This document shows positions 26,838 through 45,900 of a stretch of DNA of 64,000 bases, in pieces. The notes under the pieces are model-generated. The model was given only the letters and a program-made list of their open reading frames with translations, was not told where the DNA came from and did no database searches. The position numbers and the translations under genes are program-made. Each line of letters opens with the position of its first letter. Position 1 is the stretch's first letter. Source of the stretch: Weeksellaceae bacterium (GTDB taxonomy: Bacteria; Bacteroidota; Bacteroidia; Flavobacteriales; Weeksellaceae); contig JBLWWH010000004.1 of the NCBI GenBank assembly GCA_048268105.1, positions 89,209 through 153,208 on the forward strand, given 5' to 3'.

Positions 26838-28054
26838 AAGCGCTACCCATAAAAAATAGCCAAAACTTTAAATTTAAAACAAAAATGCAATTTAATCATA
26901 TTGTAAATCACGTTTCTATGAATTTAGTAAAATATATTAGTTTATTCATATTATTGGTTTTTATTTCTTCTTGTTCAAACGAAAAAGAAGAACAGAATTT
27001 AGCCTCAACAGACGCTCCAACAGAACTTAAAGACAATCAAATATCGGTGAGCCAACAGCAATTTGACATGAATGAAATGCATTTGGTGAAAGGTGAGGAG
27101 CGCAATTTTCCGGCGAGTATTCCCGTCAACGGAATGATAGACGTTCCGCCGAGATATAAAGCGGTAGTGTACGCTACCACAGGTGGTTACATTAATACTT
27201 CTAATTTTATGGAAGGAGATTATGTCCGCAAAGGTCAAGTGATTGCAACGATTGAAAATCCAGAATTGGTGACGATGCAACAAGAATATCTGGAATTGAG
27301 TCAGGATTTAAATTATTTAAAAACCGAAATGGATCGACAAAAATTGATGTATGATGAGAAAATCACAGCGCAAAAGAATTATTTAAAAGCGCAAAGTGAA
27401 TACAATACCGCCAAAGCGAGACACAGCGGTTTGAAGAAGCAATTAACTTTATTTAATATTTCGCCTACCCAAGCTGCTCGTGGAAACTTCTCTTCTGCCG
27501 TGAATATTTATGCACCGATTGCAGGTTATGTCATGCGCGTAAATGTTATCAAAGGAACCCATGTTTCGCCTTCCACAGAGATTTTAGAAATTGTGGATAA
27601 CAATCATTTACATGTTGAATTAACGGTGTTTGAAAAAGACGCTATGAACATTGAAAAAGGTCAAAAAGTTTTGTTCAGCATTCCAGAAATGGCGGCAACT
27701 CCCTTTGAGGCAGAAGTTTATTTAATCGGAAAAACCATCGATGCCGACCGAACCGTTCGGGTTTTTGCCCACTTGAGCCAGGAAGATAAAAACAAATTCT
27801 TAACCGGAATGTTTGTAGAAGCCGAAATCGTCACAAAAGATAACCACGGAATAGCTTTGCCAGAAACGGCAGTAGCAGAAATAGATGACAGTTTCTTTGC
27901 TTTGAAATTAAAAGAAAAAGCAGAAGATGCTTATCTTTTCGAAGAAGTTGAAGTAGAGGTAGGCGAAACCAAAAATGGATTTACCCAGATTACATCAAAA
28001 ATAGATTCCACCGCACAATTCTTGGACAAAGGTGTTTATGAACTGGTGCAGTAA
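26834..28054 (+). CDS. czcB: Efflux RND periplasmic adaptor (membrane fusion protein, CzcB/HlyD family)
   Basis: The start overlaps the czcA stop by ATGA. The lipoprotein-like signal is LFILLVFISSC (an alternative start lies at ~26918). Biotinyl/lipoyl-like and beta-barrel MFP motifs are present (QVIATIENPELV...YAPIAGYV). Confidence 0.78.
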   Translation: MKALPIKNSQNFKFKTKMQFNHIVNHVSMNLVKYISLFILLVFISSCSNEKEEQNLASTDAPTELKDNQISVSQQQFDMNEMHLVKGEERNFPASIPVNGMIDVPPRYKAVVYATTGGYINTSNFMEGDYVRKGQVIATIENPELVTMQQEYLELSQDLNYLKTEMDRQKLMYDEKITAQKNYLKAQSEYNTAKARHSGLKKQLTLFNISPTQAARGNFSSAVNIYAPIAGYVMRVNVIKGTHVSPSTEILEIVDNNHLHVELTVFEKDAMNIEKGQKVLFSIPEMAATPFEAEVYLIGKTIDADRTVRVFAHLSQEDKNKFLTGMFVEAEIVTKDNHGIALPETAVAEIDDSFFALKLKEKAEDAYLFEEVEVEVGETKNGFTQITSKIDSTAQFLDKGVYELVQ

Positions 28055-28109: not shown

Positions 28110-28856
28110 TTAAGAAAGTTTGCGTAAATTTTCTTCTAAACGTGCAATTCTATCTTCAAAATCTTCCACTTTGTCTGGAATCCTTCTGTAGAAAACATAT
28201 CGAATTCTCCAGAGTTCTTTTATGTCTTTGTGGTCAATCCGAATATCGTCGATGCTTTTATGGTCCGCCCGAAGAATAATACCGTGAGAGGTAGTGAACA
28301 TTCTGCGAAATATCAGTTGATTTTCAGCTAGTACCAAAACTGGGGTTCCATTATTTAATTTTTTAATCACACTTTTAGGTGTCCATTCACCAATCACAAC
28401 ATCTTTTGGAAAAAAACCATTGTCGCGATCGGTCATTTCTAAATCTGTAATCGTATAAGCTCGAAATCGCTTTTCTGAATTAATCGGTAAACGCAAACTC
28501 GGCATATCTTGAATAAACTTGGTTTTATCTGCGTTTAAGATATATTCTTTGGCGTTATTTTCAGTGATACATGGGATAGAAGGAAAACTTTCTTTCATGG
28601 TTTCGTCAGCACCCAATGTTAATTCACCTTTAAATTTCAACAATTGATTAACGGTTAACTCTTTCGTTAGCAAATCATCTATGGGAATGCTAAAGTAATT
28701 AGCAATATTAATAATCGTATCGATTTTTGGTTCACTTCTTTCTTCTTCATAAGCACCTAAAGTCGCTCGTTTTAAGTCAAATAGCTCTGCAAAACTTTGC
28801 TGTGAGAGAGATTTAATTCCACGAATCTTTTTTATATTTTTTCCAAAAAATGACAT
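28110..28856 (-). CDS. XRE-family helix-turn-helix transcriptional regulator with C-terminal LexA/S24-peptidase-like domain
   Basis: The N-terminal HTH_XRE is IKKIRGIKSLSQQSFAELFDLKRATLGAYEEERSEPKIDTIINIANYFSIPIDDLL. The C-terminal ~140 aa have an S24-like beta pattern (VLVLAENQLIFRRM...GIILRADHKSI). Confidence 0.6.
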   Translation of the reverse strand: MSFFGKNIKKIRGIKSLSQQSFAELFDLKRATLGAYEEERSEPKIDTIINIANYFSIPIDDLLTKELTVNQLLKFKGELTLGADETMKESFPSIPCITENNAKEYILNADKTKFIQDMPSLRLPINSEKRFRAYTITDLEMTDRDNGFFPKDVVIGEWTPKSVIKKLNNGTPVLVLAENQLIFRRMFTTSHGIILRADHKSIDDIRIDHKDIKELWRIRYVFYRRIPDKVEDFEDRIARLEENLRKLS

Positions 28857-28894: not shown

Positions 28895-29116
28895 TATCTT
28901 TGCGCTAAGATTATTGTCAAATATCTGGAAAACTGAAGTGTAATGCAAATAAAATTAGATAAATCATGATATTAATTATTATCAAACTCATCGAAATCTT
29001 CATTAGTCTCTTCGTGTAGAGATAAAATGATTAACAATTAAAAATTTCCGTATGCAATTCGGGAAAATAGAATAATTTAAACTAAATTCATCCAATCAAA
29101 TAAAAAACCCAACATT

Positions 29117-29512
29117 ATGAATGATAATTTCCAAATGGTGAAAAATTACTTAACCGACCTTAAGTATGAAATATCCTTTGAAAACAAGGAAGAAGGCATC
29201 ATGGTCATTCAAAAAGAAAGTAATGGTGTAAGAAACCTAATTTTAGGAGTTGCAACACCGATTTTAATTTTAGAGCAATTTATTTTTAAAATTAACAACC
29301 AATCAGAAATGATTTTTAAAAGTTTATTGCAAAAAAATCGTGATATCATCCATGGCGCTTTTGTGTTGGAAGAAACAGGAGAAAAAGTAATCTTCAGAGA
29401 TACACTTCAGTTGGAGAATTTAGATTTAAATGAATTAGAAGCTTCGCTGAACTCGCTTGGTTTATTGCTGAGTGAATATGCTGACAAAATTATTGAATTC
29501 TCAAAATACTAA
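29117..29512 (+). CDS. Small cytosolic protein, YbjN/T3SS-chaperone-like fold candidate (PspA-associated)
   Basis: It is 131 aa. It ends 18 bp upstream of pspA. Weak resemblance to YbjN-family proteins. The assignment is tentative. Confidence 0.35.
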   Translation: MNDNFQMVKNYLTDLKYEISFENKEEGIMVIQKESNGVRNLILGVATPILILEQFIFKINNQSEMIFKSLLQKNRDIIHGAFVLEETGEKVIFRDTLQLENLDLNELEASLNSLGLLLSEYADKIIEFSKY

Positions 29513-29530: not shown

Positions 29531-30241
29531 ATGAATATTTTTAAAAGACTATTTAAAATAGGTGAATCAGAAGCGAATGCTGCGATTGACAACATGGAAG
29601 ATCCCATTAAATTAACCGAACAATCTATTCGTGATTTAAAAATGGATTTAAGCAAAAACTTGGAATCTTTAGCACAAGTGAAGGCTTTGGCTATTCGCGC
29701 CAATAACGACAAAGAAAACTATGAAAATGAAGCCGAAGAGTTTCACAACAAAGCTATTCTTATCGTTAAAAAAGGTCAATCAGGAAGTTTAGAAGTAGAA
29801 GAATCCGACCGATTGGCGCAAGAAGCTTTGGTGAGAAAAGAAGAAAAGTTATCTCTTGCGAAAAACGCTAAATTAGAATCAGAGAAAATTCATGGTTCTG
29901 TTCAGGAATTGGAATCTAATATTGCACAATTAAAAAGCACCATCAGCAATTGGGAAAATGAGCTGAATACGCTGAAAGCACGCGTGAAAGTGAGCAAAGC
30001 CAAAACCAGTTTAAACAAACAAATGGCAGAATTGGACAGTTCTGGTTCGGTGGCGATGTTGGAGCGAATGAAAGAAAAAGTAGCGCAGCAAGAGGCTTTG
30101 GCAGACGCCTATGGTGATATCGCCAAAAACTACAAACCCATTGATGATGCCATTGACAAAGCTGCAGATTTCAGCAAGGAAAATGCAAAAGATGCGTTGG
30201 AGAATCTCAAAAAACAATTGAACCAAAACAAAGACGCTTAA
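29531..30241 (+). CDS. pspA: PspA/IM30/Vipp1-family protein (phage-shock protein A; ESCRT-III superfamily)
   Basis: It is a 236-aa all-helical coiled-coil. The N-terminal amphipathic helix is MNIFKRLFKIG and the IM30 pattern ...AIDNMEDPIKLTEQSIRDLKMDL... is present. Confidence 0.8.
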   Translation: MNIFKRLFKIGESEANAAIDNMEDPIKLTEQSIRDLKMDLSKNLESLAQVKALAIRANNDKENYENEAEEFHNKAILIVKKGQSGSLEVEESDRLAQEALVRKEEKLSLAKNAKLESEKIHGSVQELESNIAQLKSTISNWENELNTLKARVKVSKAKTSLNKQMAELDSSGSVAMLERMKEKVAQQEALADAYGDIAKNYKPIDDAIDKAADFSKENAKDALENLKKQLNQNKDA

Positions 30242-30244
30242 ACC

Positions 30245-30958
30245 GTGAACGACTTTATTGATTTAGTATTTTCAACTGTAAACCTTCCGCTGAGTTTATT
30301 GCTTATCATCTTAATTCTCTATTGGATTTTTACGATGATCAGCGGTATCGACTTCGACCTCGATTTTGATGTGGATATCGACATCGACACCGATTTTGAT
30401 TTGGACATGGACGCTGGCATAGAAGGTGGAAATGCGGATTTTGAAGATGTAGCCAGCACAGAAATTAACCAAGAAGATATTGTCGGTCGAAGACAAAAAC
30501 CCCTGAAATGGTGGCAAGTTTTTCTTATTTATTTCAATTTTGTGGGTTTGCCTTTTATGTTCACGTTCACAGTCTTTGTGTTTGCTTGGTGGTTTATCAC
30601 CATGGTGACAACAGATTTAACTTTTTCGGCAAATCATTGGGTAGGCGTTATTATATTTATATTAGCCATTATTCCCGCACTTATTTTCACTAAAATCTTC
30701 ACAACTCCTTTCAAAGCTTTCTTTGCTAAATTGAACAAAGATGGCGACCAAGCCATTGATTTCTTAGGCAGAAAAGGCACCAGTTTATCCACTATTAAAG
30801 ACGATAAAATGGGAAGAGCAGAAATTATGGTCAATGGAAGCCCCATGAACCTGTATATCAAATCATTGCATGGTGAAGAAATAGCTTATCATCAAAGTAT
30901 TTTAATCATTAAAGAATCATCAGATAAAAACTTTTTTTACGTAGAATCCTATAACTAA
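30245..30958 (+). CDS. YqiJ/NfeD-like inner-membrane protein (DUF1449-like) with C-terminal OB-fold, partner of flotillin
   Basis: It has TM helices and a C-terminal soluble beta domain (GRKGTSLSTIKDDKMGRAEIMVNGSPMNLYIKSL). It is positioned like yqiJ upstream of the yqiK-type flotillin. It contains the acidic D-x-D repeat. Confidence 0.55.
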   Translation: MNDFIDLVFSTVNLPLSLLLIILILYWIFTMISGIDFDLDFDVDIDIDTDFDLDMDAGIEGGNADFEDVASTEINQEDIVGRRQKPLKWWQVFLIYFNFVGLPFMFTFTVFVFAWWFITMVTTDLTFSANHWVGVIIFILAIIPALIFTKIFTTPFKAFFAKLNKDGDQAIDFLGRKGTSLSTIKDDKMGRAEIMVNGSPMNLYIKSLHGEEIAYHQSILIIKESSDKNFFYVESYN

Positions 30959-30965
30959 TAATTAA

Positions 30966-33035
30966 ATGAACTCAATTTTAACCATTGTCATTGTAGCCAT
31001 CGTGCTCGTCCTCTTTTTGGTGATTGTCTATTTCGCCATTATTGCCATGTTCTATCGCAAAGTACCACAAGGTGAAGCGCTCGTAAGAACTGGATTTGGA
31101 GGAATTAAAATCGCAACCGATAAAGGAATGTATGCTATTCCAGTCTTGCACAAAATAGAAATCATGGATATTTCTGTAAAGAAAATCCAAATTGAAAGAA
31201 CACATACAGAAGGTCTTGTTTGTCGAGATAATATGCGAGCAGACATAAAAGTAGCCTACTTTGTTCGGGTAAACAATGAAGTCGATGCCATTAAAAAAGT
31301 GGCACAAACCATCGGTTGTAATCGCGCTTCTGACATTGAAACCTTGCGCGATTTATTCGAAGCTAAATTTTCTGAAGCTTTAAAAACCGTGGGTAAAAAA
31401 TTCGATTTTATTGAATTATATGAAGCACGTCGTGAATTCCGGGATGAAATCGTGAATATTATAGGCACAGACCTAAATGGTTATACCTTAGAAGATTGTG
31501 CGATTGATTATTTGGAGCAAACGCCGCTTGAATATTTAAAACCAGATAATATCTTAGATGCAGAAGGAATTAAAAAAGTGACAGAATTAACGGCCGTTCA
31601 GAATATGAAAGCCAATTTCATTAAAAGAGATGAAGAAAAAACCATTCGCAAACAAGATGTAGAGGCGCGCGAGGCTATTCTAGAATTAGATAAACAATTG
31701 GCGGAAAAAGAAGAACAACAGAAACGTGAAATATCGAATATCCAATCTCGGGAACATGCAGAAATCCTGAAAGTAGCTGAAGAAGAAAGATTAAAATCTG
31801 AAACGGCACGAATTGCAACAGAAGAAAAAGTGAAAGTTGCAGAAGAAAATATGTTACGACAAATTATTGTTGCCGAAAAGAATAAACTCCGTACAGATGC
31901 TGTTGAAACCGAGCGAGTTGAAAAAGATAGAATGCTAGAAGCAACTGAACGTGAGCGAATTGTAACTTTAGCGCAAATAGAAAAAGAGAAAGTTGTTGAG
32001 GTAGAGAAAAAGAATATTCAAGATGTGATTCGAGAGCGAGTTTCTCTGGAGAAAGGAGTTGTGCAAGAGCAAGAAAACATGAAGGATATCGAAGCTTTTA
32101 AAACTGCAGATCGTGAGAAACAAGTGAAAATCACCGTCGCTGAAGGTAATGCACAAGAAGATTTGATCAAAGTAATCAAAGCCGCAGAAGCCGCCAAAGA
32201 AGCTGCAAAACAACGCGCAGAAGAAATAAATATCGAAGCACAGGCACACAAAGAAGCCAGTGAAAAAGAAGCAGAAGCTCGTAAAACTTTAGCCGAAGCC
32301 AAAGCCAAAGAGGATGCAACGCTTGGATTAGCAGAAGCCCAAGTGATGCATGCCAAAGCAGACGCGAACGAAAGAGAAGGATTGGTGAAAGCCTCTATCA
32401 CAGAGAAACAAGCACTTGCCGAAGCCAAAGGAATTGAAGCCAAAGCCGATGCAAAACGTAAAGATGGTATTGCTGAGGCCGATGTGATCAAAGAAAAAGC
32501 ATTGGCGGATGCCGCTGGAATTGTTGAGAAAGCAGATGCCATGAAAAAACTAGACGGTGTTGGAAAAGAACACGAAGAGTTTAAGTTGCAGTTAGACAAA
32601 GAATTACAAGTTGATTTAGCGCACATTAATATCCAAAAAGACATTGCCGATGCACAAGCACAAGTGATTGGAGATGCCTTGAAAGCTGCGAAAATTGATA
32701 TCGTGGGTGGCGAAACCATGTTCTTTGATCAGATTATTGGTCAAATTACAAGAGCTAAGGGATTAGATCGTCTTGTAAACCACAGTGAAAATGTGAAACA
32801 AGTGAAGGATGCTTTATTGGGTGGCGATGATGAAGTGAAAGGAAATTTATTGGAAAAAATTAAAGATTTCTCCGATAAATATAATATTTCGTCAGAAGAC
32901 ATTAAAAACTTATCGATTGCTAATTTGATTTTTAATATGCAAAATCAAGCGAAAGATAAAGACGAACAAAACATGTTGTCCAACCTGTTGAATTTAGCCA
33001 AAGGAATGGGTATTGAAAATAAAAAGTTGAAATAA
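30966..33035 (+). CDS. Flotillin-family SPFH/band-7 protein (YqiK-like) with long Ala/Glu/Lys-rich coiled-coil extension
   Basis: The N-terminal TM is followed by the SPFH core (VRTGFGGIKIATDKGMYAIPVLHKIEIMDISVKKIQI). Long EA-rich heptads follow. It is 689 aa. Confidence 0.85.
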   Translation: MNSILTIVIVAIVLVLFLVIVYFAIIAMFYRKVPQGEALVRTGFGGIKIATDKGMYAIPVLHKIEIMDISVKKIQIERTHTEGLVCRDNMRADIKVAYFVRVNNEVDAIKKVAQTIGCNRASDIETLRDLFEAKFSEALKTVGKKFDFIELYEARREFRDEIVNIIGTDLNGYTLEDCAIDYLEQTPLEYLKPDNILDAEGIKKVTELTAVQNMKANFIKRDEEKTIRKQDVEAREAILELDKQLAEKEEQQKREISNIQSREHAEILKVAEEERLKSETARIATEEKVKVAEENMLRQIIVAEKNKLRTDAVETERVEKDRMLEATERERIVTLAQIEKEKVVEVEKKNIQDVIRERVSLEKGVVQEQENMKDIEAFKTADREKQVKITVAEGNAQEDLIKVIKAAEAAKEAAKQRAEEINIEAQAHKEASEKEAEARKTLAEAKAKEDATLGLAEAQVMHAKADANEREGLVKASITEKQALAEAKGIEAKADAKRKDGIAEADVIKEKALADAAGIVEKADAMKKLDGVGKEHEEFKLQLDKELQVDLAHINIQKDIADAQAQVIGDALKAAKIDIVGGETMFFDQIIGQITRAKGLDRLVNHSENVKQVKDALLGGDDEVKGNLLEKIKDFSDKYNISSEDIKNLSIANLIFNMQNQAKDKDEQNMLSNLLNLAKGMGIENKKLK

Positions 33036-33154: not shown

Positions 33155-33433
33155 ATGAAACCACTTTTAATTTCAAAAAACACAACCCTCATCATAGCGA
33201 TCATGGGAGCTTTAATTAGCATTTTTGGTGCATGGATAAGAATTTATCAGTTTTCGAATAATTTCATACCAAACAGTACGATTTTCCTTTCGATAGGTTT
33301 GGTGATGAGTTTAATTGCATGGTTTGTAGTATTTTATGATATTATGTTAAATCCACTTAGAAATAAATTTTTGTGGATTATTGGGATGTTTTTCGCAAGT
33401 CTCATAACTGTTATTTTTTATTTATTAAGATAA
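33155..33433 (+). CDS. Small 3-TM membrane protein, PLDc_N-like (cardiolipin-synthase N-terminal domain family)
   Basis: It is 92 aa. The C-terminal pattern W...D......NKFLWIIGMFF...IFYLLR matches the PLDc_N motif. Confidence 0.45.
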   Translation: MKPLLISKNTTLIIAIMGALISIFGAWIRIYQFSNNFIPNSTIFLSIGLVMSLIAWFVVFYDIMLNPLRNKFLWIIGMFFASLITVIFYLLR

Positions 33434-33525: not shown

Positions 33526-36500
33526 ATGCCTGAAACTACCCAAAACATTGCCTCTGGAACCTACGAAATCATTCGTAACCGACTTCATCAGCACAAAGAT
33601 GATTTGCAGAAACGCTTAAATTCATTGAATGCGGAGCGCCAGAAAGTCTTTGGTTCGTTGGAGACCAAGTTGATTGCAAATGATAGAATTAACACCGACA
33701 ACAGTTGCATTGCAAGCGATATTATATCCTTAGATAACCTGTGTATTTTTGGGTATAATGTTCATTTTGGATTACGCACAAAAATTCAGTTAAATGATGT
33801 TTTTAGTATTTATGAATTCAGTGAAAATCAATTTCATCCTAAATCTTTGGAATTAATCAATGATTCTACTTTTATTATAGATTTCACCAATCTTTATAAA
33901 TATTACAGAAATACATTTTTCACCCGATTTGCGATTATAGGTAATTATCTGCACATGGTTTTTCAGCTCAGTGAAAATGTTTCTGACATCAAAACATTTA
34001 AGTGGTTGATTAATGATCAAACCCTGACGTATGTTGATAACAGAAGCGAACACGAGTATAAATTCCCAGCGCAACACGAATTTCGTTGGCAATCGGTTGG
34101 GCGCGAAATGCACCGTTATGGAACTTTTCCCCACGCATCGATTTTAGATAAAGTTTTTGTGGAAACCATTGGTGGTGATCTTACGATTAAAATAGAAGAC
34201 AATACAGAAGATGGCGAAGGAATCTATTCAGAACCCGTAGAATATGCGGATCAAACCCTAGATGACGGACAAATCAGATATGCAGATTTAGGGAATCTTA
34301 TTGTTTTTGAGGTCAAGCCATTTCAAGAGAAATCACGCTATTTTGTTTATAATCATAAACTTAGAGAAGTAAATAAAATTGATTCCTTGGGCGATGCTTG
34401 TATTTTATTGCCAGACGAACAAGGAATTATTTTCCCGACAGGATATTATTTGCAAACCGGTGAATATTATTTGTTTGATAATGTGATTCCAGAAATTAAA
34501 TTTGCTCAAAAAATACTTTCGCCCAATGGAGAAGATGTGCTTTTTGTTTTTTATTTGCCCAAAGAAGGATTGTACAATTTGATGTCGTATAATGTGATTT
34601 CGCAGGAGATTTTGACGCCGATTATTTGTAGTGGTTTTACGATTATTAAAGATGGTGAATTATGTTATTTCAAAAGTGAAGAAGAACAAACCCGCCATCA
34701 TCTCATCCAAATTTGGCAAACTCCCTACTTGAAAGGTGAATTTGTTCCAACCGAACACAAAGATAATTTTTTATATAAAGTAGGTAATAAGGACATTGTG
34801 AAAGCCATGGCAGAAACCCATGCTTTGATTACTTTGTTAAGTAAAGAAGATAATTATGCGGGTTTATATGCTGATATCACCAAGTCTGCCAAAAATATAG
34901 CAGATGCATATTATTGGATTTCAGATGATAATGCTTTTGCATTATCTGCGCCTTTAAAAGAAATTCAAAATGCAGCCAAAGCGGCGATTGATGAATTTGA
35001 AAAAGTAGTTCAATTTAAGAAGAATGCAGAAGCGCAAATCAAAGAAATTCAAACGAAATCTAAAGCTTTATTTAGTAAAATAAAAGGTTCGTCTTTCAAG
35101 AATATAGATGATTTTGTTCAATCTTTAAGTGGTTTACGTAACCTGCGGGGTGAGGTGATTACGCTAAAAGAAGTTCGTTATATCGACACCGATATTTTGG
35201 CTGAAATTGAACAGGAAATCGTAGAAGAAACCGAGCGTTTATCTCAAAAATCGGTTCATTTTTTATTAGAAGATAAAGCCCTTGATCCTTATCATGAAAG
35301 AGTTAAAGAAAAGGAAAAATATCTGGACGATATAAAAAAAGCCATCGATGCCAAAAATCTCGAAAAAGAAGTAGTTCAAATTGCGACAGATTTGGAAATG
35401 TTAATCGAAATTGTATCGAATCTTAAGATTGAAGACACTTCGCAATCCACCAAAATCATAGATAATATTTCGTTGATTTTTGCCCATATCAATCAGTTGA
35501 AAGCAGCGATTAAAAATAAAATTAACAACCTGGGCGGCGACGAAGCCAAGGCAGATTTTGCAGCACAAATGAAATTGGTTGAGCAGAGTTTAATCAATTT
35601 GATTGATTTGGCAGATACGCCCGCAAAATGTGATGAATTTCAATCTAAAATTACCGTTCAACTCGAAGAACTCGAAAGTAAATTCGCTGATTATGATGCA
35701 TTTATTGTACAAATCATGGAAAAGCGAGAAGAGATTTATGATGCTTTTGATGCCCGAAAAAATAATTTAATCGAAAGACAAAATCAACGAATTTCAACCC
35801 TTAAAACTTCAGCTGAAAGAATTCTCAAAAATGTTGAAAAAAAGGCAGATACCTTAAAATCTAATGAGGAAATTCATGGTTATTTTGCTTCTGATTTAAT
35901 GGTGAGCAAAGTGCGTGATATCATTGCGCAACTAGAGGAATTGGATGATAGAGGTGGCGCAGAGGATATTTTAACTTCGCTTAAAACAGCCAAAGAAGAC
36001 AGTCTTCGGAAATTGCGTGACAAACAAGATTTATATGAAGATGGAGAAAACATCATCAAATTGGGTGATCATAAATTTGGTGTTAACCGTCAAGCTTTGG
36101 AATTAACCATGTTGTACAAAGACGAAAAACCTTATTTTCATCTCGCTGGAACAGATTATTATCAGAGTTTTGATAATGAAACTTTGGCAGCTTCTAAATA
36201 TTGGACACAAGAATATAGTTCGGAAAACAAACAGGTCTATCGTGCTGAATATCTGGCGTATAAGATTTTTAAAACAAAATCTATGGCAAGCTTAGAAAAA
36301 GCTACTCATGAAGATATGGCGGAATGGATTCAAAAAGAAAGTAGCGAAAACTATACAGAAGGTTACACCAAAGGCGTTCATGATCAGGATGCGTTGGCAA
36401 TTCTGGAAGTGCTGATTCAAAAACATCTCGATTTAAAATTATTGCGTTATAATGCTAAAATCAGAGCGGCAGCGCAATTCTTTTGGTATCAAAAAACGGA

Positions 36501-38376
36501 AGAAGAAAGGTTCGAGAAAAATCGAAAAATTAAATCTGCAGGAGAGATTATTCAACTATTTCCTGGTTCCGATGCTTTTGATTTTGTTTTAAATAGATTA
36601 ATAAATGAAATTTCTATTTTCGCCCAAGAATCTAACTTATTTTCAGCAGACTTAGCCCAAGATATGGCGCAATATTTAATGCAAGAATTGCAGCATGACG
36701 ATGCCTTCCAGATCAGTCAGGCATCTAAGAATATTCAAAATGAAGTTGAAAAATACTTAAAAGAAAAAAATTCTGATATTGCTTTTTACAACGCCATAGA
36801 AAACACACAAAGTTATGTGGAGAAAATAGAATTGGTGCGTCAATATGTTAAAGCTTTTATTCAGTCAAAACCCAAAGAATTTAATCCAAATTACATCGAC
36901 GAAGTCGTTGCCAATATATTATTTTCTGATTTGTCTTATGAGCCGATTAATGCCATTTCAGCGCAAGAAGAAATTAAAGATTTAAAAGGAACTCATGAAG
37001 TTATTCAAAATGGTACGTATCATTTTGATTATCAAGAATTTATACAAAAACTTGGATATTTTCATGATATTGAAGTTCCTGCCTTTGAGCAATTTAGAAA
37101 AGAAAAAGCAAAATTAATTGAGGTTGAAAAAGAAAAATTAAAACTTCATACGTTCCAACCCAATGTGCTTTCATCTTTTGTGAGAAATAAATTAATAGAT
37201 GAGGTTTATTTGCCTTTGTTCGGAGATAATTTCGCCAAACAGTTAGGAACTGCCGATGCCCATCAACGCATAGACCGCATGGGATTGTTGTTGTTGATTT
37301 CTCCTCCAGGATATGGTAAAACTACTTTAATGGAATATTTGGCGAACCGTTTGGGCTTGGTTTTCATGAAAATAAACGGACCTACGATTGGACACGAAGT
37401 GACTTCCGTAGATCCGATGGCGGCCAAGAATTCAGCGGCGAGAGAGGAATTAATTAAATTAAATCTCGCCTTTGAAATGGGCAACAATGTTATGTTGTAT
37501 TTAGATGATATTCAGCATTGTAATCCCGAATTCCTACAAAAATTCATTTCTTTATCAGATGGAACTCGTTCCATAGAAGGCGTTTATAATGGAAGATCGA
37601 AAACCTATAACCTGAGAGGAAAGAAATTCGCGGTGGTGATGGCTGGAAATCCTTACACAGAAAGTGGTGCCAAGTTCCAAGTGCCCGATATGTTGACCAA
37701 TCGAGCCGATATTTACAATTTGGGAGATATCATTGGAAACACCAAAAAGTTATTTGAAATGAGTTTGATTGAAAATGCGATTACCAGCAATGCCGACATC
37801 AGACAAATGAGAAATACATCGATGAAAGATGTTTATCAACTCATAGATAAAGTAGAGAACAATTCAGAAATTGAATTGGAAGGAAAATATTCTCCTCAAG
37901 AAATTAATGATTATACTTCTGTGTTAGAAAAAATGCTGAAAGTGAGAGATGTGGTGTTGAAGGTGAATTCTGCTTACATCAAATCGGCAGCCATGGAAGA
38001 TGAATATCGTACAGAACCTGCGTTTAAGCTACAAGGTTCTTATCGTGATATGAATAAGTTGGTGAGCAAAATTGTTCCTGTAATGAACGATCAAGAATTA
38101 GAAAGTTTATTGTTATCTCATTATGAATCAGAAGCTCAAACTTTGACGTCATCTGCAGAAGCCAATTTATTGAAATACAAAGAATTAACGAATAAGCTAA
38201 CAAAAGAAGAAAACCAACGTTGGAATGAAATTAAAACTATATTTGAGAAAAACAATAAGTTAAAAGGTTTTGGAAATAAAAATGAAATGGCACAAGTTTT
38301 ATCCCAACTCATGAATTTTGGAGAAAACTTAGAAGGAATAAAGGAGATTCTCGCCAAAGGACTCGACTCAAAATAA
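33526..38376 (+). CDS. Giant (1616 aa) multidomain protein with C-terminal-proximal MoxR/McrB-like AAA_5 ATPase core
   Basis: The Walker A is LLISPPGYGKTT (nt ~37303-37323). The Walker B is VMLYLDDIQ (nt ~37495-37509). The sensor pattern is FAVVMAGNPYTESG...VPDMLTNRADIYNL. The N-terminal ~450 aa are beta-rich. A ~350-aa coiled-coil lies between residues 470 and 820. Confidence 0.6.
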   Translation: MPETTQNIASGTYEIIRNRLHQHKDDLQKRLNSLNAERQKVFGSLETKLIANDRINTDNSCIASDIISLDNLCIFGYNVHFGLRTKIQLNDVFSIYEFSENQFHPKSLELINDSTFIIDFTNLYKYYRNTFFTRFAIIGNYLHMVFQLSENVSDIKTFKWLINDQTLTYVDNRSEHEYKFPAQHEFRWQSVGREMHRYGTFPHASILDKVFVETIGGDLTIKIEDNTEDGEGIYSEPVEYADQTLDDGQIRYADLGNLIVFEVKPFQEKSRYFVYNHKLREVNKIDSLGDACILLPDEQGIIFPTGYYLQTGEYYLFDNVIPEIKFAQKILSPNGEDVLFVFYLPKEGLYNLMSYNVISQEILTPIICSGFTIIKDGELCYFKSEEEQTRHHLIQIWQTPYLKGEFVPTEHKDNFLYKVGNKDIVKAMAETHALITLLSKEDNYAGLYADITKSAKNIADAYYWISDDNAFALSAPLKEIQNAAKAAIDEFEKVVQFKKNAEAQIKEIQTKSKALFSKIKGSSFKNIDDFVQSLSGLRNLRGEVITLKEVRYIDTDILAEIEQEIVEETERLSQKSVHFLLEDKALDPYHERVKEKEKYLDDIKKAIDAKNLEKEVVQIATDLEMLIEIVSNLKIEDTSQSTKIIDNISLIFAHINQLKAAIKNKINNLGGDEAKADFAAQMKLVEQSLINLIDLADTPAKCDEFQSKITVQLEELESKFADYDAFIVQIMEKREEIYDAFDARKNNLIERQNQRISTLKTSAERILKNVEKKADTLKSNEEIHGYFASDLMVSKVRDIIAQLEELDDRGGAEDILTSLKTAKEDSLRKLRDKQDLYEDGENIIKLGDHKFGVNRQALELTMLYKDEKPYFHLAGTDYYQSFDNETLAASKYWTQEYSSENKQVYRAEYLAYKIFKTKSMASLEKATHEDMAEWIQKESSENYTEGYTKGVHDQDALAILEVLIQKHLDLKLLRYNAKIRAAAQFFWYQKTEEERFEKNRKIKSAGEIIQLFPGSDAFDFVLNRLINEISIFAQESNLFSADLAQDMAQYLMQELQHDDAFQISQASKNIQNEVEKYLKEKNSDIAFYNAIENTQSYVEKIELVRQYVKAFIQSKPKEFNPNYIDEVVANILFSDLSYEPINAISAQEEIKDLKGTHEVIQNGTYHFDYQEFIQKLGYFHDIEVPAFEQFRKEKAKLIEVEKEKLKLHTFQPNVLSSFVRNKLIDEVYLPLFGDNFAKQLGTADAHQRIDRMGLLLLISPPGYGKTTLMEYLANRLGLVFMKINGPTIGHEVTSVDPMAAKNSAAREELIKLNLAFEMGNNVMLYLDDIQHCNPEFLQKFISLSDGTRSIEGVYNGRSKTYNLRGKKFAVVMAGNPYTESGAKFQVPDMLTNRADIYNLGDIIGNTKKLFEMSLIENAITSNADIRQMRNTSMKDVYQLIDKVENNSEIELEGKYSPQEINDYTSVLEKMLKVRDVVLKVNSAYIKSAAMEDEYRTEPAFKLQGSYRDMNKLVSKIVPVMNDQELESLLLSHYESEAQTLTSSAEANLLKYKELTNKLTKEENQRWNEIKTIFEKNNKLKGFGNKNEMAQVLSQLMNFGENLEGIKEILAKGLDSK

Positions 38377-38419
38377 TAGGTTATCTTTGCCTACATATAA
38401 AATAGTTAAATCTTATAGT

Positions 38420-38923
38420 ATGAAAACAGTAAAAATGATTCTTTTAAGTGTGGCATTTACCGCAGCCCTAGTAAGTTGTAAAAACGAAGCTGCGAACGAT
38501 GCTGATGCCATTGTCTTAACTGAAGATGAAACAAACCACGATGAGCATGCCATGGAAAACCATGATGATATGGAACATCACGATGTCGATGAAAGCGTTG
38601 TGAGTGAGCCTATTTCTTTGAATGATGGTGAAAAATGGGTGGTTAATGAAGAAATGAAACCTTTTGTTTCGCAAGGTGAAAATTTGGTTAATACTTACGA
38701 TGGAGACCATAAGGCGCTCGCTGTCAATCTAACAGAACAAAACAATCAATTGATAAAAAGTTGCACTATGGAAGGAACAAGCCATGATGAGTTACACAAA
38801 TGGTTACATCCACATTTGGAAATGGTGAAAGAATTAGGCGATATGGATCATCAAGAGGCTGCAGATAAGCAAGTAGACGAGATTAAAAACTCATACCAAG
38901 TTTATCACGAGTATTTTCAATAA
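38420..38923 (+). CDS. His/Asp/Glu-rich lipoprotein (candidate periplasmic metal-binding protein)
   Basis: The lipobox is AALVSC. The acidic His-rich run is NHDEHAMENHDDMEHHDVDES. The ORF track starts at 38387, but the signal-peptide Met at 38420 is the more likely start. Confidence 0.4.
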   Translation: MKTVKMILLSVAFTAALVSCKNEAANDADAIVLTEDETNHDEHAMENHDDMEHHDVDESVVSEPISLNDGEKWVVNEEMKPFVSQGENLVNTYDGDHKALAVNLTEQNNQLIKSCTMEGTSHDELHKWLHPHLEMVKELGDMDHQEAADKQVDEIKNSYQVYHEYFQ

Positions 38924-38972: not shown

Positions 38973-39010
38973 AAAAAAGCCGTTGCAATTGCAACGGCTT
39001 TTTTTTTTTA
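38973..39010. terminator. Bidirectional terminator: A6 plus perfect 20-bp palindrome GCCGTTGCAATTGCAACGGC plus T11
   Basis: It lies between the convergent 38420-38923 (+) and 39026-39817 (-) genes. Confidence 0.7.
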
Positions 39011-39960: not shown

Positions 39961-42900
39961 CTATTCCTTTATCATAACATTCAGTCCATCGCTATGCGCT
40001 GTGAATTCTGGTGCATACATGTTTTGTAATTGGGTAATTCCATTCGAGAAATTACCAGCATTGTTGGCTCTTAAATCATATTCAAACACATAAACACCTT
40101 TGGGTAAATAATCGATAAAGAAATTTGTTGTCGCGTCTCTTGTACTTTCATAATAGCCTAAACCATCTTGCCATTTAAAGGTACTCAACACATTCACGGG
40201 TTCAAATCCACTCGCGCGCATATCTTTGATATGAACAAATTCCATCGCTCTATCGGTTTGAATTTCTAATCGAACTTTTACCAAATCGCCGATTTCAATC
40301 GGAGCATTTTCGGTTATTTCAAAGAGCTTAGGACCTTGTGGCGTGTTTTTCTGAATAAACAATTGCTTTTTAAACTTAACATTCGTTTCAGCATTTGTGA
40401 TTTTATCTAAATCCTCAAAATACTGCCAATACATCGCGCCCCAAGCAACTCCTGGAGAAGATTTCTCTACTTCGATTTTACCCATTTCTGGTGTGATTTC
40501 ACCTTTGCTCCAGCTTTCTTTTACATAACCACTACCAGATTGAACGTCGGTAGAAGGATTTGTGTTGGCATCATACCAAATAGTATTTCCAACTTTTACC
40601 TTAATTCCATCCTCTGCATTTGTCCAGTCTTTTCCAGTGTTCATTAAGGCATAAACGGCTTCGGTTGTTGCTTTGGTAGAGTTCCATTGATTAGTCTGTT
40701 TATTCTTCAGTAACCACACTTTCATGCTTTCTACGCTTTCCATATCTTTTGGCGTAATCTCATCAAATGCCTCTATTAACAAGGCTTGTGTTTCAACAGG
40801 AGCTTCAAACCATCGGTAACCACTCACATTTTCTTTCCAATACATGCCCATTTCATCTGACTCAACCGAGCGGTCTTTAATAGAAAAAACTAAATCTTTG
40901 GCTTTTTTCTCGTGACCAAATCTATGAAGAGTTAGGGCTAAAAGGGCTTGCGTGTTCAATGCACGATCATATTTTCCTTTATCTAATTCGGTTAAGAAAT
41001 AGTCTTTAGCTTTGCTTAGTTTATTACTTAATGGGTGTGATTCCAAGAAAAAACTTCTAGCATATAACCAATACAAACCATCATAATCACTCAAGAAATA
41101 ACGCTTTTTATCCGCTTGGAATTTATCCCATTTTTTCTCCATTTCATTATCTATAAACTCAATGGCTAATTCTGGAATACTTTCTAAATCTATCGAGATT
41201 TCTGAGTTCTCACTTATGCCCATTTTGGCTAAATGTCCAAATCCAGCTACAATATGTGTTGTGATATAAACATTTTCTTTTCCACCTTCAAACCAAGCAA
41301 AACCTCCGTTTTCTGATTGTTTTTGCTCTAATTTTCTATAGGTATCCTTCAACTCACTGCGCATTTTATTTAAATCAAATAAAACTGCAATTCTCTTCAT
41401 TTGTTCGGTTTCACTTTGCGCATCTCTCACCCAAGGCGTCTCTTCTAAAAGTATATTTTTAAGTTCTTGATTCTCTTCCAAAGGTGAGATTAATTGTCCT
41501 TTACGATTCCAGTCGTCAAAAACAGCTTTAATTTTTGGATTCGAATTTACAATGGATTGAGAAATTAAATTTCCATAAAAACGTGCAAAAACCTGCTCTG
41601 AACAATCATACGGATACTCACGTAAGTAAGGTAGAGCCATCACTGCATACCAAATCGGATTGGTGGTCATTTCCATCGTCAGCTTGAAATTATCTCGCGT
41701 AGCTGAGGTGGTATTCATCAACTTATCAAAAGTGAAGGTTTTTGATTGGTTTTCTCTCACATGGATCGGCATGGTTTCGGTTACCAGCATTCTATTCGTA
41801 AGAATCGGTAAAGCGTTTTCCTCTCCATCAGAAAACTCACCCGTGCTTGCTATCACTCTATAAACTACCGACTGAACTTCGTCTACGTTCGGAACTTCTA
41901 AAGTCCAAGAGACCGTTGAATTTCCTCCAGCTTCAACATCAAAAGTTTGCTGAGATTGGTTCAAGTTAAATTTAGCTTCAATCGGCTGCATGCTAAATGC
42001 GTCAAAAAGCACTAATTGCGCATCACCACTTAAAGCTTTCTCCGAAAGATTGATGATTTTGGTTTTAAAAATAACTTCATCACCTTCTCTGAAAAATCTT
42101 GGTGCATTCGGAACTACCATCAATTCTTTCTGGGTTACAACATCTGCCTGAAAAACTCCGGTTTTTAAATCTTGCGTATGCGCCACCGCTTGAAAATTCC
42201 ATTGGGTTAAACTTTCGGGTGAAGTGAATTCAATTTTCACATTTCCGTTGGCATCTGTTTTTAAATTCGGAAAGAAAAAAGCAGTTTCTTGTAGGTTCTT
42301 ACGTGCTTGAACTTGACTCAAATCTTGTTTTGGCATTGATGATTCTTCAGTTGTAATAACAACAACTCCATTTGCACCTTTTGAACCATAAAGTGCAGTG
42401 GCATCCGAACCTTTTAAAACTGTTATGTTGGCTACATTCATTGCTTCAGCTTCTTTCTTAGAAACTATTCTTCCGTCCACAACATATAGTGCTTCATCAG
42501 AAACGTTGAGGCTATTTAATCCTCTTAATACCATTTTTTTATCTCTTGCTGAATCTTCTATATTCACCCCTGCAACTTCTCCTTCCAAAGCTGCATCCAT
42601 TGTACTTTCTTCCATGACTGGCGCAGGTGCCGCTGCTTTCATCGAATACATGATTTGATGTCTTCTAAATTCATTCAAGGTTAAACCAAATAAATTTAAA
42701 TCTTCAAAGTTTAATGTAGGATAGGTTGTATAATTACGATAATATATTTGATTAAAATAGGTCTTTTGATCAGTCTGCCAATTGTTAAATGAAGAATAAT
42801 TAGACGCGAAAGGGGAGAAATCATAAGGATTTGTCACAAATTCATCTAGCGATTTATCATACATTCCCGCAAGAACTTCTGCTAAGAATTTATCTCCTTT

Positions 42901-45900
42901 TTTATCTTTTATATTTAAAGTCCAAGTTTCATTTTGACCTGGTTCTAGTTTATTTCTTAAAGTTTCTACCGTGAAATCAAGTTGCTTGTTTTCATAAGGA
43001 ACTTGAATCCCAATAGTTTTGGACGTGGATTGATTGAATTTATTAAAATAAACGTGCACAAACACACCTCCGCGATAATCTTCTTTGATAGGAAATCTAT
43101 AATTTTTTGAATTATTGAGTTGTAGAATTTGCTTTTGAACAATTTCTCCATTGGCTTCTAACTCCACCAAAACATGTGCATCTTCCGCATCTGATATAAA
43201 TGTGATTTCTGCCGTATCATTTGGTTGAAGTGAATAATTTTTTAAAACTACATCAAAATAGGAATTCTGTTCCGTCATTTCATTTGGATTAAAAACTTCT
43301 ATGACTTTTATGGTTTCAATGGTATCATTATTAACCATAGAAATCGCTTTTAATTCATATAGTCCCACTGGAATTTTCTGATTCCAAGAGATTGAATCTG
43401 AGGTGACTGTATTCCATTGTTGGGTTAAAATCTTATCGCCACGGGGTTTATTTTCCAACAAATGTTCGTTGTCATAGGCGATATAAGGTAATTTCGATAT
43501 AAATTCTTGTTTTTCAAGTAATTCATAGTCCACTTTGGTCTGGTCTGATCGTAAAACACGCTCCAGTTTCTGAATTTCTGTAATACTGAATTCCCCAGAA
43601 GCATCTGTATCTAGACCGTTGAGATTTTGTGCAGAAATCTTGATTTTATTAAAATCTTCGACGGTGATTTTATCTTTCACCAAAAGGCTCAGGGTAAGAG
43701 GAATATCTCCAATGCGCACATTTTCTTCTACCGAATGAGTTTCTCCAGAAATATCGGTAACATCGGCAACAATGCGATAAGAATATGCTCTTTTTCCTTC
43801 TTTTTCGGATTCTTTGGGTAAGGCGGTGAAATCAAATTCAAAAATTCCATTTTCATCGGTAGTGGTTTCACCCGAAATCATGTCAACTTCTTCGTTATAA
43901 ATCGGTCTCCACCACCAGCCATAAGGATTATAACTTTTTCTAAAAACACGATAAACAACTTTAGCATCAGAAACATTGGCGCCCGAAAAAGTTGTGGCTT
44001 TCCCGCTCACTTTTACTTGTTGATTTAATTTATAAACACTTTTCAAACTATCCAACTCAACTTGAAATTTGGGTCTTTTATATTCTTCCACTTGAAAGGC
44101 ATAGTAGTTGTCATCCGACCAATCGTCACTAATTTCGAATTCTCCTGTTAGACCAGAAGTGGGAAGCACAAATTCACCATGAACAGAACCAAATTCATTA
44201 GAAATTAAATTTAAAGATGTAATCTCCTCAGAATTAGCATCATTCAATGAGATTTCAATAGACTCATTTTTTGCGATTCGTCTTTCCTTGCCTTTGGATT
44301 GATATAATATACCTTTGAAATAAACGGTTTGTCCGGGACGATAAATCGAACGATCGGTAAAGATTTTTAATTGATTTATCCAATCATCCTTTTTGGCATC
44401 GTTGCGATGATAGGAGTAAGGATTGACCAAAAGAAGAGTTTCTTCCTGTGCGACTTGAATCGCATAATTTCGGTCATAATTTCTAGAAATTTTATTTAAT
44501 TTAACTCGTCCAAAATCATCTGTGGTTAAAGTTTCAATTTTATTAAAAGGAGCATTCTTAACCGATTCTAATAAAGAAACACTTTGATTTTTTAAAGGTA
44601 AACCCGTAGATTTCTCCAACAATTGAACTTCTCTCTCAGAAGAAGTTTCACCTGTTAAAATTCTCGAAGCCAAATCTATATGGGTAGAATTCATGGCTGC
44701 TTGAAACAATTGATGATTAATTTCTCCTTCAAAATTTTCATTATCAGAGATTAAAACAATATAATTTCCTGAGGGTAGCGGCGGAAAAGGAAAGTGAGTG
44801 GTATGACTTTGATAATCGCTAAATTCGTTGAGTTCAATTGAATTTTTTAAAACAACATCGCCAACAATTTTTAATTTTTTTGTTTTATAATCGTAATCAA
44901 AACCGCTGATATTTTTTGCAAACTGACTGTTGTTGAGTTGATAGACGCGATAGAATATTTTGTAGAGGTTGGTATGAGAAATATTCAAAGGATTATATTG
45001 ATTCGCAAAAAAACTTCCGTCTGTGGAAAAATGTAACTGCGGAATCTCAATTTCTTTTTGAATTGCGAGAGCTCGTTGCGCTCCAAAGGTTTTTGGAAAT
45101 CTTTTTTGAGCTATTTGTGTAACTTCAACCGCTTCTACCAGTTTATTTTCTGACTTTAATTCGGTGGCTAAGCTCGCTAGAATATTGGTGGACCAAGTTT
45201 CATTTTTAAAATCTTGGTCAAGTTTTTTCAATGCTGCAATTATATCAAAAGTGGCAGAATTTTGTTTTAAATAATAAAGTTGATCGATATGATTTTGAAT
45301 TAAAGCACTTTTATCTTTATCATTTTTATGTATTTGAATTAAATCGGCATAAATTTTTTCAATCTTGGCTTTTTTCGCGTTTTGATCGAATTCCTGTGCA
45401 TCAAATCGGCGGTTTTCAAAAATTTTAAGTGCGCGTTTTGCCAATATATCATATAGCGTTGGCTGCAGAAAACGATATTCCTTTTCACCCTGAAGCAAAA
45501 GTGCAATTTGGCTCACATTGCTACCATAAAGTTGATTTTTTTGACTTATAGAAGCTTGTAGAAGAGTATCAATTTCTTTCAAGAATTTCTCTGTGGTCCA
45601 AGTTCTAAAATCGGTAGAAGTATTATCGGCAACATCGGTTCTATTTTGAAAACGATAATAATTTTCTTGATAATAGTTAAAATATAATTCCGCCAAAATG
45701 GATTGCAAAACAGACTTTTCGAGACCTTTATTTTGTTCAATTTCTTGTAGAATTTCATTTTGAGTTTGAATAACAATATTTTCATCATCAGAAGTTTGAA
45801 CAGCAATATTGGATTTAAAAATCAAGGCTTTAATCAAATCATCGGTTTGATTTTCTGCTTTAGCCGCCTCATAAATTTCGTTTAAAAGAGGAGAAAGTTG

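Follow-up and report, generated by a model that had tools for sequence, protein, structure and literature searches.

The window analyzed here is a stretch of 64 000 nt from a Weeksellaceae bacterium (contig JBLWWH010000004.1). At 33526..38376 on the plus strand it contains an ATG-started open reading frame (ORF) of 1616 codons, the sixth of seven genes lying on the same strand, which encodes a giant ATPase. The ORF had been called from the sequence alone in an earlier model-made annotation (the original prediction). We conclude that it is not a chance one, because an identical protein is present in NCBI and full-length homologues of 1600–1650 aa align collinearly with it at 60–78% identity and 99–100% query coverage. 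The parts of the gene and of its product are the following (window coordinates):

33526..38376, plus strand: ATPase gene, DUF3686/DUF7902/AAA+, 1616 aa (ORF call, Pfam, homologues)
33601..34914, plus strand: DUF3686 domain, residues 26–463
34936..36015, plus strand: heptad-rich helical region, residues 471–830 (heptad score versus shuffles)
35275–35526, plus strand: DUF7902, residues 584–667 (Pfam)
36052..36171, plus strand: small conserved beta domain, residues 843–882 (AF2 model, invariant residues)
36241..36927, plus strand: all-helical domain, residues 906–1134 (AF2 model)
37258..37785, plus strand: AAA+ core, residues 1245–1420
37300–37326, plus strand: Walker A motif SPPGYGKTT, residues 1259–1267
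37489–37509, plus strand: Walker B motif VMLYLDD, residues 1322–1328
37786..38373, plus strand: helical lid and C-terminal helical region, residues 1421–1616 (AF2 model, conservation)

Judged by its sequence, the 1616-aa product belongs, as an ordinary orthologue, to a widespread family of giant ATPases, which is already represented in Pfam and in the literature. Pfam PF12458 (DUF3686) covers residues 26–463 over profile positions 1–448 of 448 (E = 2.4e-178; 593.7 bits at a cut-off of 25), so that the N-terminal 450 aa, earlier held to be unassignable to any family, match a known domain from end to end. DUF7902 covers residues 584–667 (E = 1.4e-25, 89.7 bits), and the order of DUF3686, DUF7902 and a P-loop AAA+ module is the one found in the family members, which are collinear over the full length. 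The supposedly unusual domain order is thus the rule within the family, since it recurs in hundreds of the listed homologues. A word-indexed search returned at least 4758 proteins at E ≤ 1e-5, among which the listed ones all share this Pfam architecture and mostly carry the NCBI product name ‘DNA repair ATPase’. An exhaustive HMMER search restricted to the N-terminal domain yielded 683 cluster representatives (clustering at 50% identity), of which 481 had E ≤ 1e-10, and given these numbers the protein can no longer be called an orphan. As nearly all full-length DUF3686 representatives measure 1600–2000 aa, the domain is essentially confined to this architecture. When one genome per species was scanned, at least 567 matches were confirmed, which belong to Bacteroidota, Planctomycetota, Verrucomicrobiota, Desulfobacterota, Kiritimatiellota, Omnitrophota and Clostridia. 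With a profile built from divergent members we also reached Gammaproteobacteria (Vibrio, Reinekea, Halopseudomonas, Pseudoalteromonas), Myxococcota, Acidobacteriota, Armatimonadota and Actinomycetota; altogether the family is distributed over at least 10 phyla. DUF3686, PF12458 and DUF7902 are mentioned in no paper of the library that we searched, and our literature search found no biochemical study of a DUF3686 ATPase. The original prediction had reckoned with the possibility that the whole protein might belong to a known and characterized family, for example of restriction or defense ATPases. This is half the case: the family and its genomic partners are known, but the family is not biochemically characterized and, with no match in PADLOC, is not one of restriction or defense ATPases.

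The region matched by DUF3686 comprises the end of an N-terminal helix (residues 5–42), a beta-propeller-like domain (51–399) and a helical cap (415–479). We evaluated the conservation of the ATPase across several phyla on 76 full-length sequences. Within the propeller, conservation peaks at residues 211–247, a strongly acidic stretch that is nearly invariant across phyla (consensus FVETIGGDLTIKIEDNTEDGxGIYSEPVE..DQTLDD) and is a candidate partner- or cation-binding surface. In residues 471–830, which contain few Pro or Gly and many charged residues, 49% of the residues fall into heptad-like 28-mers, compared to 7% ± 8% in shuffled sequences, and 0 of 200 shuffles scored as high. This signal comes in separate blocks (492–521, 606–678, 703–740 and 749–782), from which we conclude that several helical segments are likely and not one coiled coil of 350 aa; of the long coiled coil proposed earlier, the heptad-rich character therefore stands and the continuity does not. 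For the C-terminal half we used an AF2 model of residues 830–1616 with a pLDDT (predicted local distance difference test) of 83. It shows in succession the small beta domain (strands at model positions 14–52, centered on the motif EDGENIIKLG.HKFGVN), the all-helical domain, a long helix, the alpha/beta core of the AAA+ module (residues ~1250–1400) and the helical lid with the C-terminus. According to the conservation profile the all-helical domain at 906–1134 is the least conserved part of the ATPase, and a conserved block in the C-terminal region (YRxEPxFKLQGSYRxMN) occupies residues 1494–1510. About 800 helical residues lie between the propeller and the AAA+ core. We found neither a signal sequence nor a transmembrane (TM) segment in the ATPase, the highest 19-residue Kyte–Doolittle mean being 1.3, which agrees with the earlier view of a cytosolic or peripheral protein devoid of a signal peptide and TM segments. 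Taken together, Pfam, heptad scoring and the AF2 model broadly bear out the domain sketch from which we started.

The AAA+ core is located where it had been predicted, at residues ~1245–1420: Pfam AAA and AAA_5 both exceed their cut-offs at residues 1255–1379, and the Walker A and Walker B motifs can be placed. A beta-hairpin insert is predicted ahead of sensor 1 (residues 1349–1362), sensor 1 is N1375 and the conserved arginine is R1393. Among the 76 sequences SPPGYGKTT, hhhYhDDIQH, the sensor 1 motif MAGNPYTE and the Arg motif IPDMLxNRxD are invariant or nearly so, and we therefore consider the enzyme to be under strong purifying selection. The loop following strand beta-2 (INGPxIGHxVTSxDP) is conserved to a similar degree as the catalytic motifs. 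The acidic pair of Walker B is DD in all 76 sequences and thus deviates from the canonical hhhhDE. Since active AAA+ proteins such as DnaA can likewise have DD in their Walker B, we see no sign of inactivity in this deviation.

Regarding the AAA+ clade, the P-loop module gives Pfam matches to AAA_22 and RuvB_N in addition to AAA and AAA_5, all of them weak. Searching the PDB with the full protein (phmmer) we obtained P-loop matches of 35–70 residues only (p97, VAT, Rix7, RuvB), and the family profile of the AAA+ region likewise matched only ~35–45 residues round the P-loop (p97, Rix7, NVL, RuvB). Since these matches are confined to the P-loop, the clade is not assignable from sequence. In Foldseek the AAA+ module matched dynein, RuvB, ClpB, Lon, MCM, NorQ and CbbQ with E-values between 1e-5 and 1e-3. 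Structurally, the closest folds were MoxR-type proteins (CbbQ, NorQ), midasin and dynein, followed by ClpA and the D2 module of ClpB. On the basis of these fold matches and of the predicted hairpin before sensor 1 we place the module with the MoxR/dynein-type AAA+ proteins, as an AAA_5-type core whose nearest structural likeness is to MoxR proteins, and for this reason the earlier ‘AAA_5’ call was a reasonable one. The features of the classical AAA clade (Vps4, p97, FtsH), i.e. a match to PF00004 along its whole length that takes in the second region of homology, were not found. MoxR proteins such as CbbQ, NorQ and RavA are stand-alone proteins of ~250–330 aa that have DE in their Walker B and work with a VWA-domain partner. 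In contrast, the AAA+ module of the window lies near the end of a 1616-aa chain, which is far from a stand-alone protein of ~300 aa, its DD is invariant and there is no VWA gene nearby (Pfam matched a VWA domain in none of the operon genes). We would say that the ATPase resembles a MoxR-type remodeller in its action and that it is not a member of the MoxR family.

At the C-terminal end of the ATPase additional domains are found in other lineages. A subset of homologues of 1840–2080 aa carries PilZ, a receptor domain for cyclic di-GMP (c-di-GMP), at the extreme C-terminus (P0465, P0475, P0478, P0480, P0482, P0485, P0486, P0488, P0492, P0501 and P0506, with scores of 24.6–30.3 bits at a cut-off of 22.5; one locus encoding such a fused ATPase is L084, 8001–13520), which suggests control of the ATPase by a second messenger in those lineages. 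A homologue from Desulfobacterales (L039, 14600–15667) ends in ankyrin repeats. The C-terminal extensions of 100–400 aa in homologues from Planctomycetota, Verrucomicrobiota and other Desulfobacterota matched no significant Pfam family. The C-terminal end thus looks like a slot for extra domains, which hints at regulated recruitment.

The remaining genes of the same-strand cluster and the elements bordering it are listed below:

28110..28856, minus strand: divergent helix-turn-helix (HTH) regulator of XRE/Cro type, 248 aa (Pfam HTH_19, HTH_3)
29117..29512, plus strand: CesT/Tir-like (YbjN superfamily) chaperone, 131 aa (CesT_Tir_1 E = 3e-55, YbjN, CesT)
29531..30241, plus strand: PspA/IM30 protein (ESCRT-III superfamily), 236 aa (PspA_IM30 E = 5e-36; NCBIfam PspA below cut-off)
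30245..30958, plus strand: short NfeD (YqiJ/YuaF-like) membrane protein, 237 aa (orthologue profile)
30966..33035, plus strand: flotillin-like SPFH/Band 7 protein, 689 aa (Band_7 E = 3e-14)
33155..33433, plus strand: hydrophobic small membrane protein, 92 aa (translation)
38387..38923, plus strand: predicted lipoprotein rich in His, Asp and Glu, 178 aa, signal peptide ending in LVSC (translation)
38973..39004, plus strand: strong intrinsic-terminator-like hairpin, 14 pairs and a T-run, closing the same-strand cluster ahead of a convergent gene

We compared this neighborhood with 80 related loci from Bacteroidota, Planctomycetota, Verrucomicrobiota, Desulfobacterota, Kiritimatiellota, Omnitrophota and Clostridia by searching their ORFs with the window proteins and then with profiles. 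In most of these loci residues ~1–1616 of the ATPase aligned at 44–64% identity. A flotillin gene was found immediately upstream of the ATPase gene on the same strand in 70 of the 80 loci; as 7 of the 10 exceptions have too little upstream DNA to be judged, the count becomes 70 of 73. An NfeD-like gene was present in 63 of the 80, and the window itself conforms to this, with flotillin and short NfeD directly upstream and in the same orientation. In Clostridia and Planctomycetota the flotillin ORF abuts or overlaps that of the ATPase. From these linkage counts we conclude that the ATPase has flotillin and NfeD as its obligate partners in the genome. The CesT-like gene (34 of 80 loci) and the PspA gene (36 of 80) were observed exclusively in Bacteroidota. 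In terms of gene content, short NfeD, flotillin (SPFH) and DUF3686-AAA+ ATPase form the core triad of the module, to which PspA and the CesT/YbjN-like chaperone are a lineage-specific addition in Bacteroidota and, apparently, in Pseudomonas aeruginosa. Directly upstream of the ATPase gene a two-gene unit of matching size, encoding 216–251 aa and then 627–692 aa, was also found in Streptomyces, in Halopseudomonas and in a PilZ-fused variant; Band_7 matched only the Streptomyces protein of 692 aa, and weakly.

Two of these loci have further neighbors. In Halopseudomonas (L081, 1–13331) the NfeD-like/flotillin-like/ATPase triad stands back to back with a different PspA operon of opposite orientation (DUF2170-PspA-K channel-DUF2491-DUF350-DUF1190), so that PspA is again nearby in another arrangement. 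In Streptomyces apocyni (L082, 12994–14871) an HSP70/MreB-like gene lies convergent and immediately downstream of the ATPase gene.

Within the window, the CesT-like gene is followed on the same strand, after 18 nt, by the PspA gene, which is the arrangement of the CesT/Tir-PspA class of phage-shock (envelope-stress) operons of Ravi et al. The 237-aa protein has the layout of an NfeD-like protein (N-terminal TM helix, acidic DxD-rich loop, more TM helices and a C-terminal beta domain), although it has no Pfam match of its own. A profile of 14 orthologues matched a single PDB entry, Bacillus subtilis YuaF (2k14, E = 0.021, C-terminal domain), and in Pfam YqiJ_N was matched by 4 and NfeD by 1 of the 14. 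On this sequence evidence we assign it to the short NfeD proteins of YqiJ/YuaF type, with which bacterial flotillins are usually paired. The flotillin, which has no sequence match in the PDB, consists of an N-terminal TM helix, the SPFH domain and a long helical region rich in Glu, Ala and Lys. The 92-aa membrane protein shows a sub-threshold match to PLDc_N (19.8 bits versus 23.3) and is lineage-specific, with a counterpart in 0 of the 80 related loci. Among these loci the gap between the flotillin and ATPase genes ranges from an overlap to ~2.3 kb, and because of this variability the position of the 92-aa gene looks tolerant to insertion. The lipoprotein gene starts 11 nt past the stop of the ATPase gene and ahead of the terminator, and is probably co-transcribed with it. 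Its product has no match in the 80 related loci and, being rich in His, Asp and Glu, may bind metal. Between the divergent HTH gene and the CesT-like gene there is an 18-nt AT-rich palindrome, TGATATTAATTATTATCA, at 28967–28984, a candidate operator that may also be a chance match in AT-rich DNA. A scan for sigma-70 promoters stayed at the level of shuffled sequences (46 versus 46.9 expected), with a model that does not cover the promoters of Bacteroidota.

The wider window is ordinary chromosome (PolA, MetRS, TyrRS, PEP carboxylase, RND pump) and not an island. The pump region at 22524–28054 (plus strand) encodes a 1437-aa AcrB-type RND transporter with a fused C-terminal OEP/TolC-like domain, and an HlyD/RND adaptor gene follows with a 4-nt overlap; such a fusion of pump and outer membrane factor is unusual. 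At 39961–46023 on the minus strand we found a bacterial alpha-2-macroglobulin-like protein of 2020 aa (MG2, bait region, A2M, bMG10), in which residues 1140–1220 match the Plug domain of TonB receptors.

The operon has a published counterpart. Ravi et al. (mSystems 2024; PMC11237479) described, in a purely computational work, an operon of CesT/Tir, PspA, YqiJ/YuaF, flotillin and a ‘novel AAA+ ATPase’, which they read as a system of ATP-dependent sub-membrane dynamics. Their example is ANH61663.1 of Dokdonia donghaensis, and the ATPase is listed as ‘Betapropeller+Coiled-coil+AAA-ATPase’ (PMC11237479 supplement). Gene order and orientation of the Dokdonia operon are those of the window, including the divergent gene given as ‘<-cHTH+Protease’ (PMC11237479), and the Dokdonia homologues of the window ATPase are 62–63% identical over the full length. 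In contrast to the Dokdonia operon, the window alone adds the 92-aa membrane protein before the ATPase and the His-rich lipoprotein after it. The abbreviated flotillin-YqiJ-ATPase operons reported across bacteria and archaea (PMC11237479) match the loci that we found outside Bacteroidota.

The bacABCDEF operon of P. aeruginosa (PA3732–PA3727) also appears to be the same system. BacA has a type III secretion system chaperone/YbjN fold, BacB is PspA-like, BacC (PA14_16160) is a short NfeD, BacD (PA14_16180) is an SPFH protein and BacE (PA3728/PA14_16190) is annotated as ‘ATPase involved in DNA repair’, so that the order agrees with that of the window cluster and the CesT-like protein of the window is by gene order the counterpart of BacA. 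Peculiar to bacABCDEF are bacF as the sixth gene and a sigma-54 promoter that has been proposed for it. The genes bacA–F are co-transcribed, bacB–F are up 6- to 13-fold in a bacA mutant, the products accumulate in biofilm and after osmotic shock, and PA3728–PA3732 are induced by phage infection. It is a speculation that the PilZ fusions described above agree with this link to biofilms. The window CesT-like protein, searched as a single sequence and as a 16-sequence profile, matched neither the crystal structure of BacA nor any related PDB chain. The profile of divergent members retrieved, among others, proteins of Halopseudomonas, Vibrio and Reinekea, and none of P. aeruginosa; as PA3728 is thus absent from our homologue lists, the link to BacE rests on the published annotation.

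On these grounds we propose that the ATPase is the cytosolic subunit of a membrane-stress and membrane-scaffold module and acts as an ATP-driven remodeller of flotillin/NfeD, and of PspA where present, a proposal that in our estimation has an even chance of being correct. The flotillin would be anchored via its N-terminal TM helix and would assemble together with NfeD into an oligomeric scaffold lining the inner membrane on its cytoplasmic side, on which the ATPase could dock via its N-terminal beta-propeller and/or its helical stalk. The MoxR/dynein-like AAA+ modules would form a ring, and ATP hydrolysis would remodel, open or disassemble the flotillin assembly, and PspA polymers where these are present. 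As a result flotillin and PspA subunits would be recycled and the state of the membrane patch would be altered. That a ring forms, that the ATPase physically contacts flotillin, NfeD or PspA and what it acts on are inferred here from the gene linkage, from the closest AAA+ relatives, which are remodellers and motors, and from the pairing of SPFH and ESCRT-III proteins with AAA+ machines elsewhere. According to the literature, the cages built by SPFH proteins are paired with AAA+ machines, and the genetic or physical pairing of an SPFH scaffold with such a machine, as in HflK/C-FtsH and prohibitin-m-AAA, is a theme common to these systems and the window. However, FtsH and m-AAA belong to the classical AAA proteases, are anchored in the membrane and sit inside the cage, whereas the window ATPase is soluble, lacks a protease domain and is of another AAA+ type. 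A functional analogy can also be drawn to Vps4/ESCRT-III, since the window co-encodes an AAA+ ATPase with a polymer-forming member of the ESCRT-III superfamily (PspA/Vipp1/Snf7), and by this analogy the ATPase probably recycles a membrane-bound assembly as Vps4 does. The mechanochemical role suspected by the original prediction is compatible with the MoxR/midasin/dynein-like fold and with the ~800 helical residues leading to the propeller.

Several points weigh against our proposal. The tie of the ATPase to flotillin, NfeD and PspA consists of gene linkage, which is silent on which protein is the substrate, and at three loci (L038, L064, L069) no flotillin adjoins the ATPase although 7 kb or more of upstream DNA is available, the neighbors there being unrelated and uninformative. 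The AAA+ clade is not firmly assigned, as the profile matches span ~40 residues and the Foldseek E-values lie between 1e-5 and 1e-3, and MoxR-type ATPases usually work with a VWA-domain partner, which Pfam did not find in the operon. In P. aeruginosa a mutant of the flotillin paFlo3 has only a marginal biofilm phenotype, and that PA3728 is a DUF3686 protein is taken from its published annotation and not from a sequence comparison. A more specific version of the proposal, which we put forward tentatively and with clearly less confidence than the general one, is that the DUF3686 AAA+ protein may be the long-sought dedicated motor that disassembles and remodels bacterial flotillin cages, and PspA polymers where co-encoded. 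It would then be a bacterial functional counterpart of Vps4 with a MoxR/dynein-type module, the propeller as a ‘hand’ and the helical region as an ‘arm’, switched by c-di-GMP via PilZ in some lineages.

Among the alternatives, the strongest takes the ATPase for a MoxR-like chaperone that folds, inserts, extracts or disaggregates membrane-associated clients, with flotillin/NfeD serving as its platform and not as its substrate. CbbQ and NorQ, its closest folds, are indeed MoxR chaperones that remodel client enzymes, with ClpA and ClpB D2 next in rank, and bacterial flotillin microdomains are reported to stabilize unfolded proteins (PMC11222466). However, the operon contains neither a VWA gene nor another MoxR-typical adaptor, and no conserved client gene lies nearby, the universally linked genes being flotillin and NfeD only; we therefore regard a client chaperone as rather unlikely. 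Still less probable in our view is an ATP-regulated tether or mechanical element, in which stalk and propeller join flotillin assemblies to another structure and the nucleotide controls oligomerization and not the remodelling of a substrate; this corresponds to the mechanochemical or scaffold ATPase of which the original prediction was reminded. The ~800 helical, heptad-rich residues between propeller and AAA+ core would suit such a role, structural comparison ranks midasin and dynein among the best matches, and the variable C-terminal adaptors (PilZ, ankyrin) suggest regulated docking. Unlike dynein and midasin, though, each chain has a single AAA+ module, the strict conservation of the hydrolysis motifs argues for real turnover, and a second conserved partner was not found.

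An anti-phage or abortive-infection system, in which the ATPase would sense infection and the membrane proteins would be the effectors, seems very improbable. Large coiled-coil ATPases are common in defense systems and the P. aeruginosa genes PA3728–PA3732 respond to phage, but PADLOC assigned 0 families to the seven same-strand genes (generic HTH models match the divergent regulator only) and a nuclease or other toxic effector domain is absent. Moreover, the surroundings are of a housekeeping kind (PolA, MetRS, TyrRS, PEP carboxylase), and the synteny is kept at 44–78% identity across whole phyla, which is unlike patchy defense islands. That the protein is a DNA repair ATPase, as its Pfam description and NCBI product name (‘ATPase involved in DNA repair’) and weak RuvB_N/RuvB matches at the P-loop might suggest, is hardly credible, as no curated repair family (RuvB, SMC/RecN-like) is matched above its cut-off, RuvB models reach only ~20 bits against cut-offs of 282–299 (the NCBIfam scan gave sub-threshold RuvB matches only), Pfam finds no DNA-binding, helicase or nuclease domain, the neighbors are membrane proteins in 70 of the 73 assessable loci and the searched library holds no paper that mentions DUF3686/PF12458.

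The candidate and its gene context are thus already in the literature, and the window adds an orthologue and structural detail to them and not a new kind of system. The name ‘DNA repair ATPase’ in public databases is misleading, given the membrane-protein context and the lack of any detected DNA-related domain. How assembly is regulated for PspA homologues without an associated AAA+ ATPase has been described as an open question (PMC11237479). A giant ATPase that has invariant catalytic motifs and whose gene accompanies those of flotillin and NfeD in at least 10 phyla is an obvious candidate for the driver of assembly turnover, and the DUF3686 family is an attractive experimental target.

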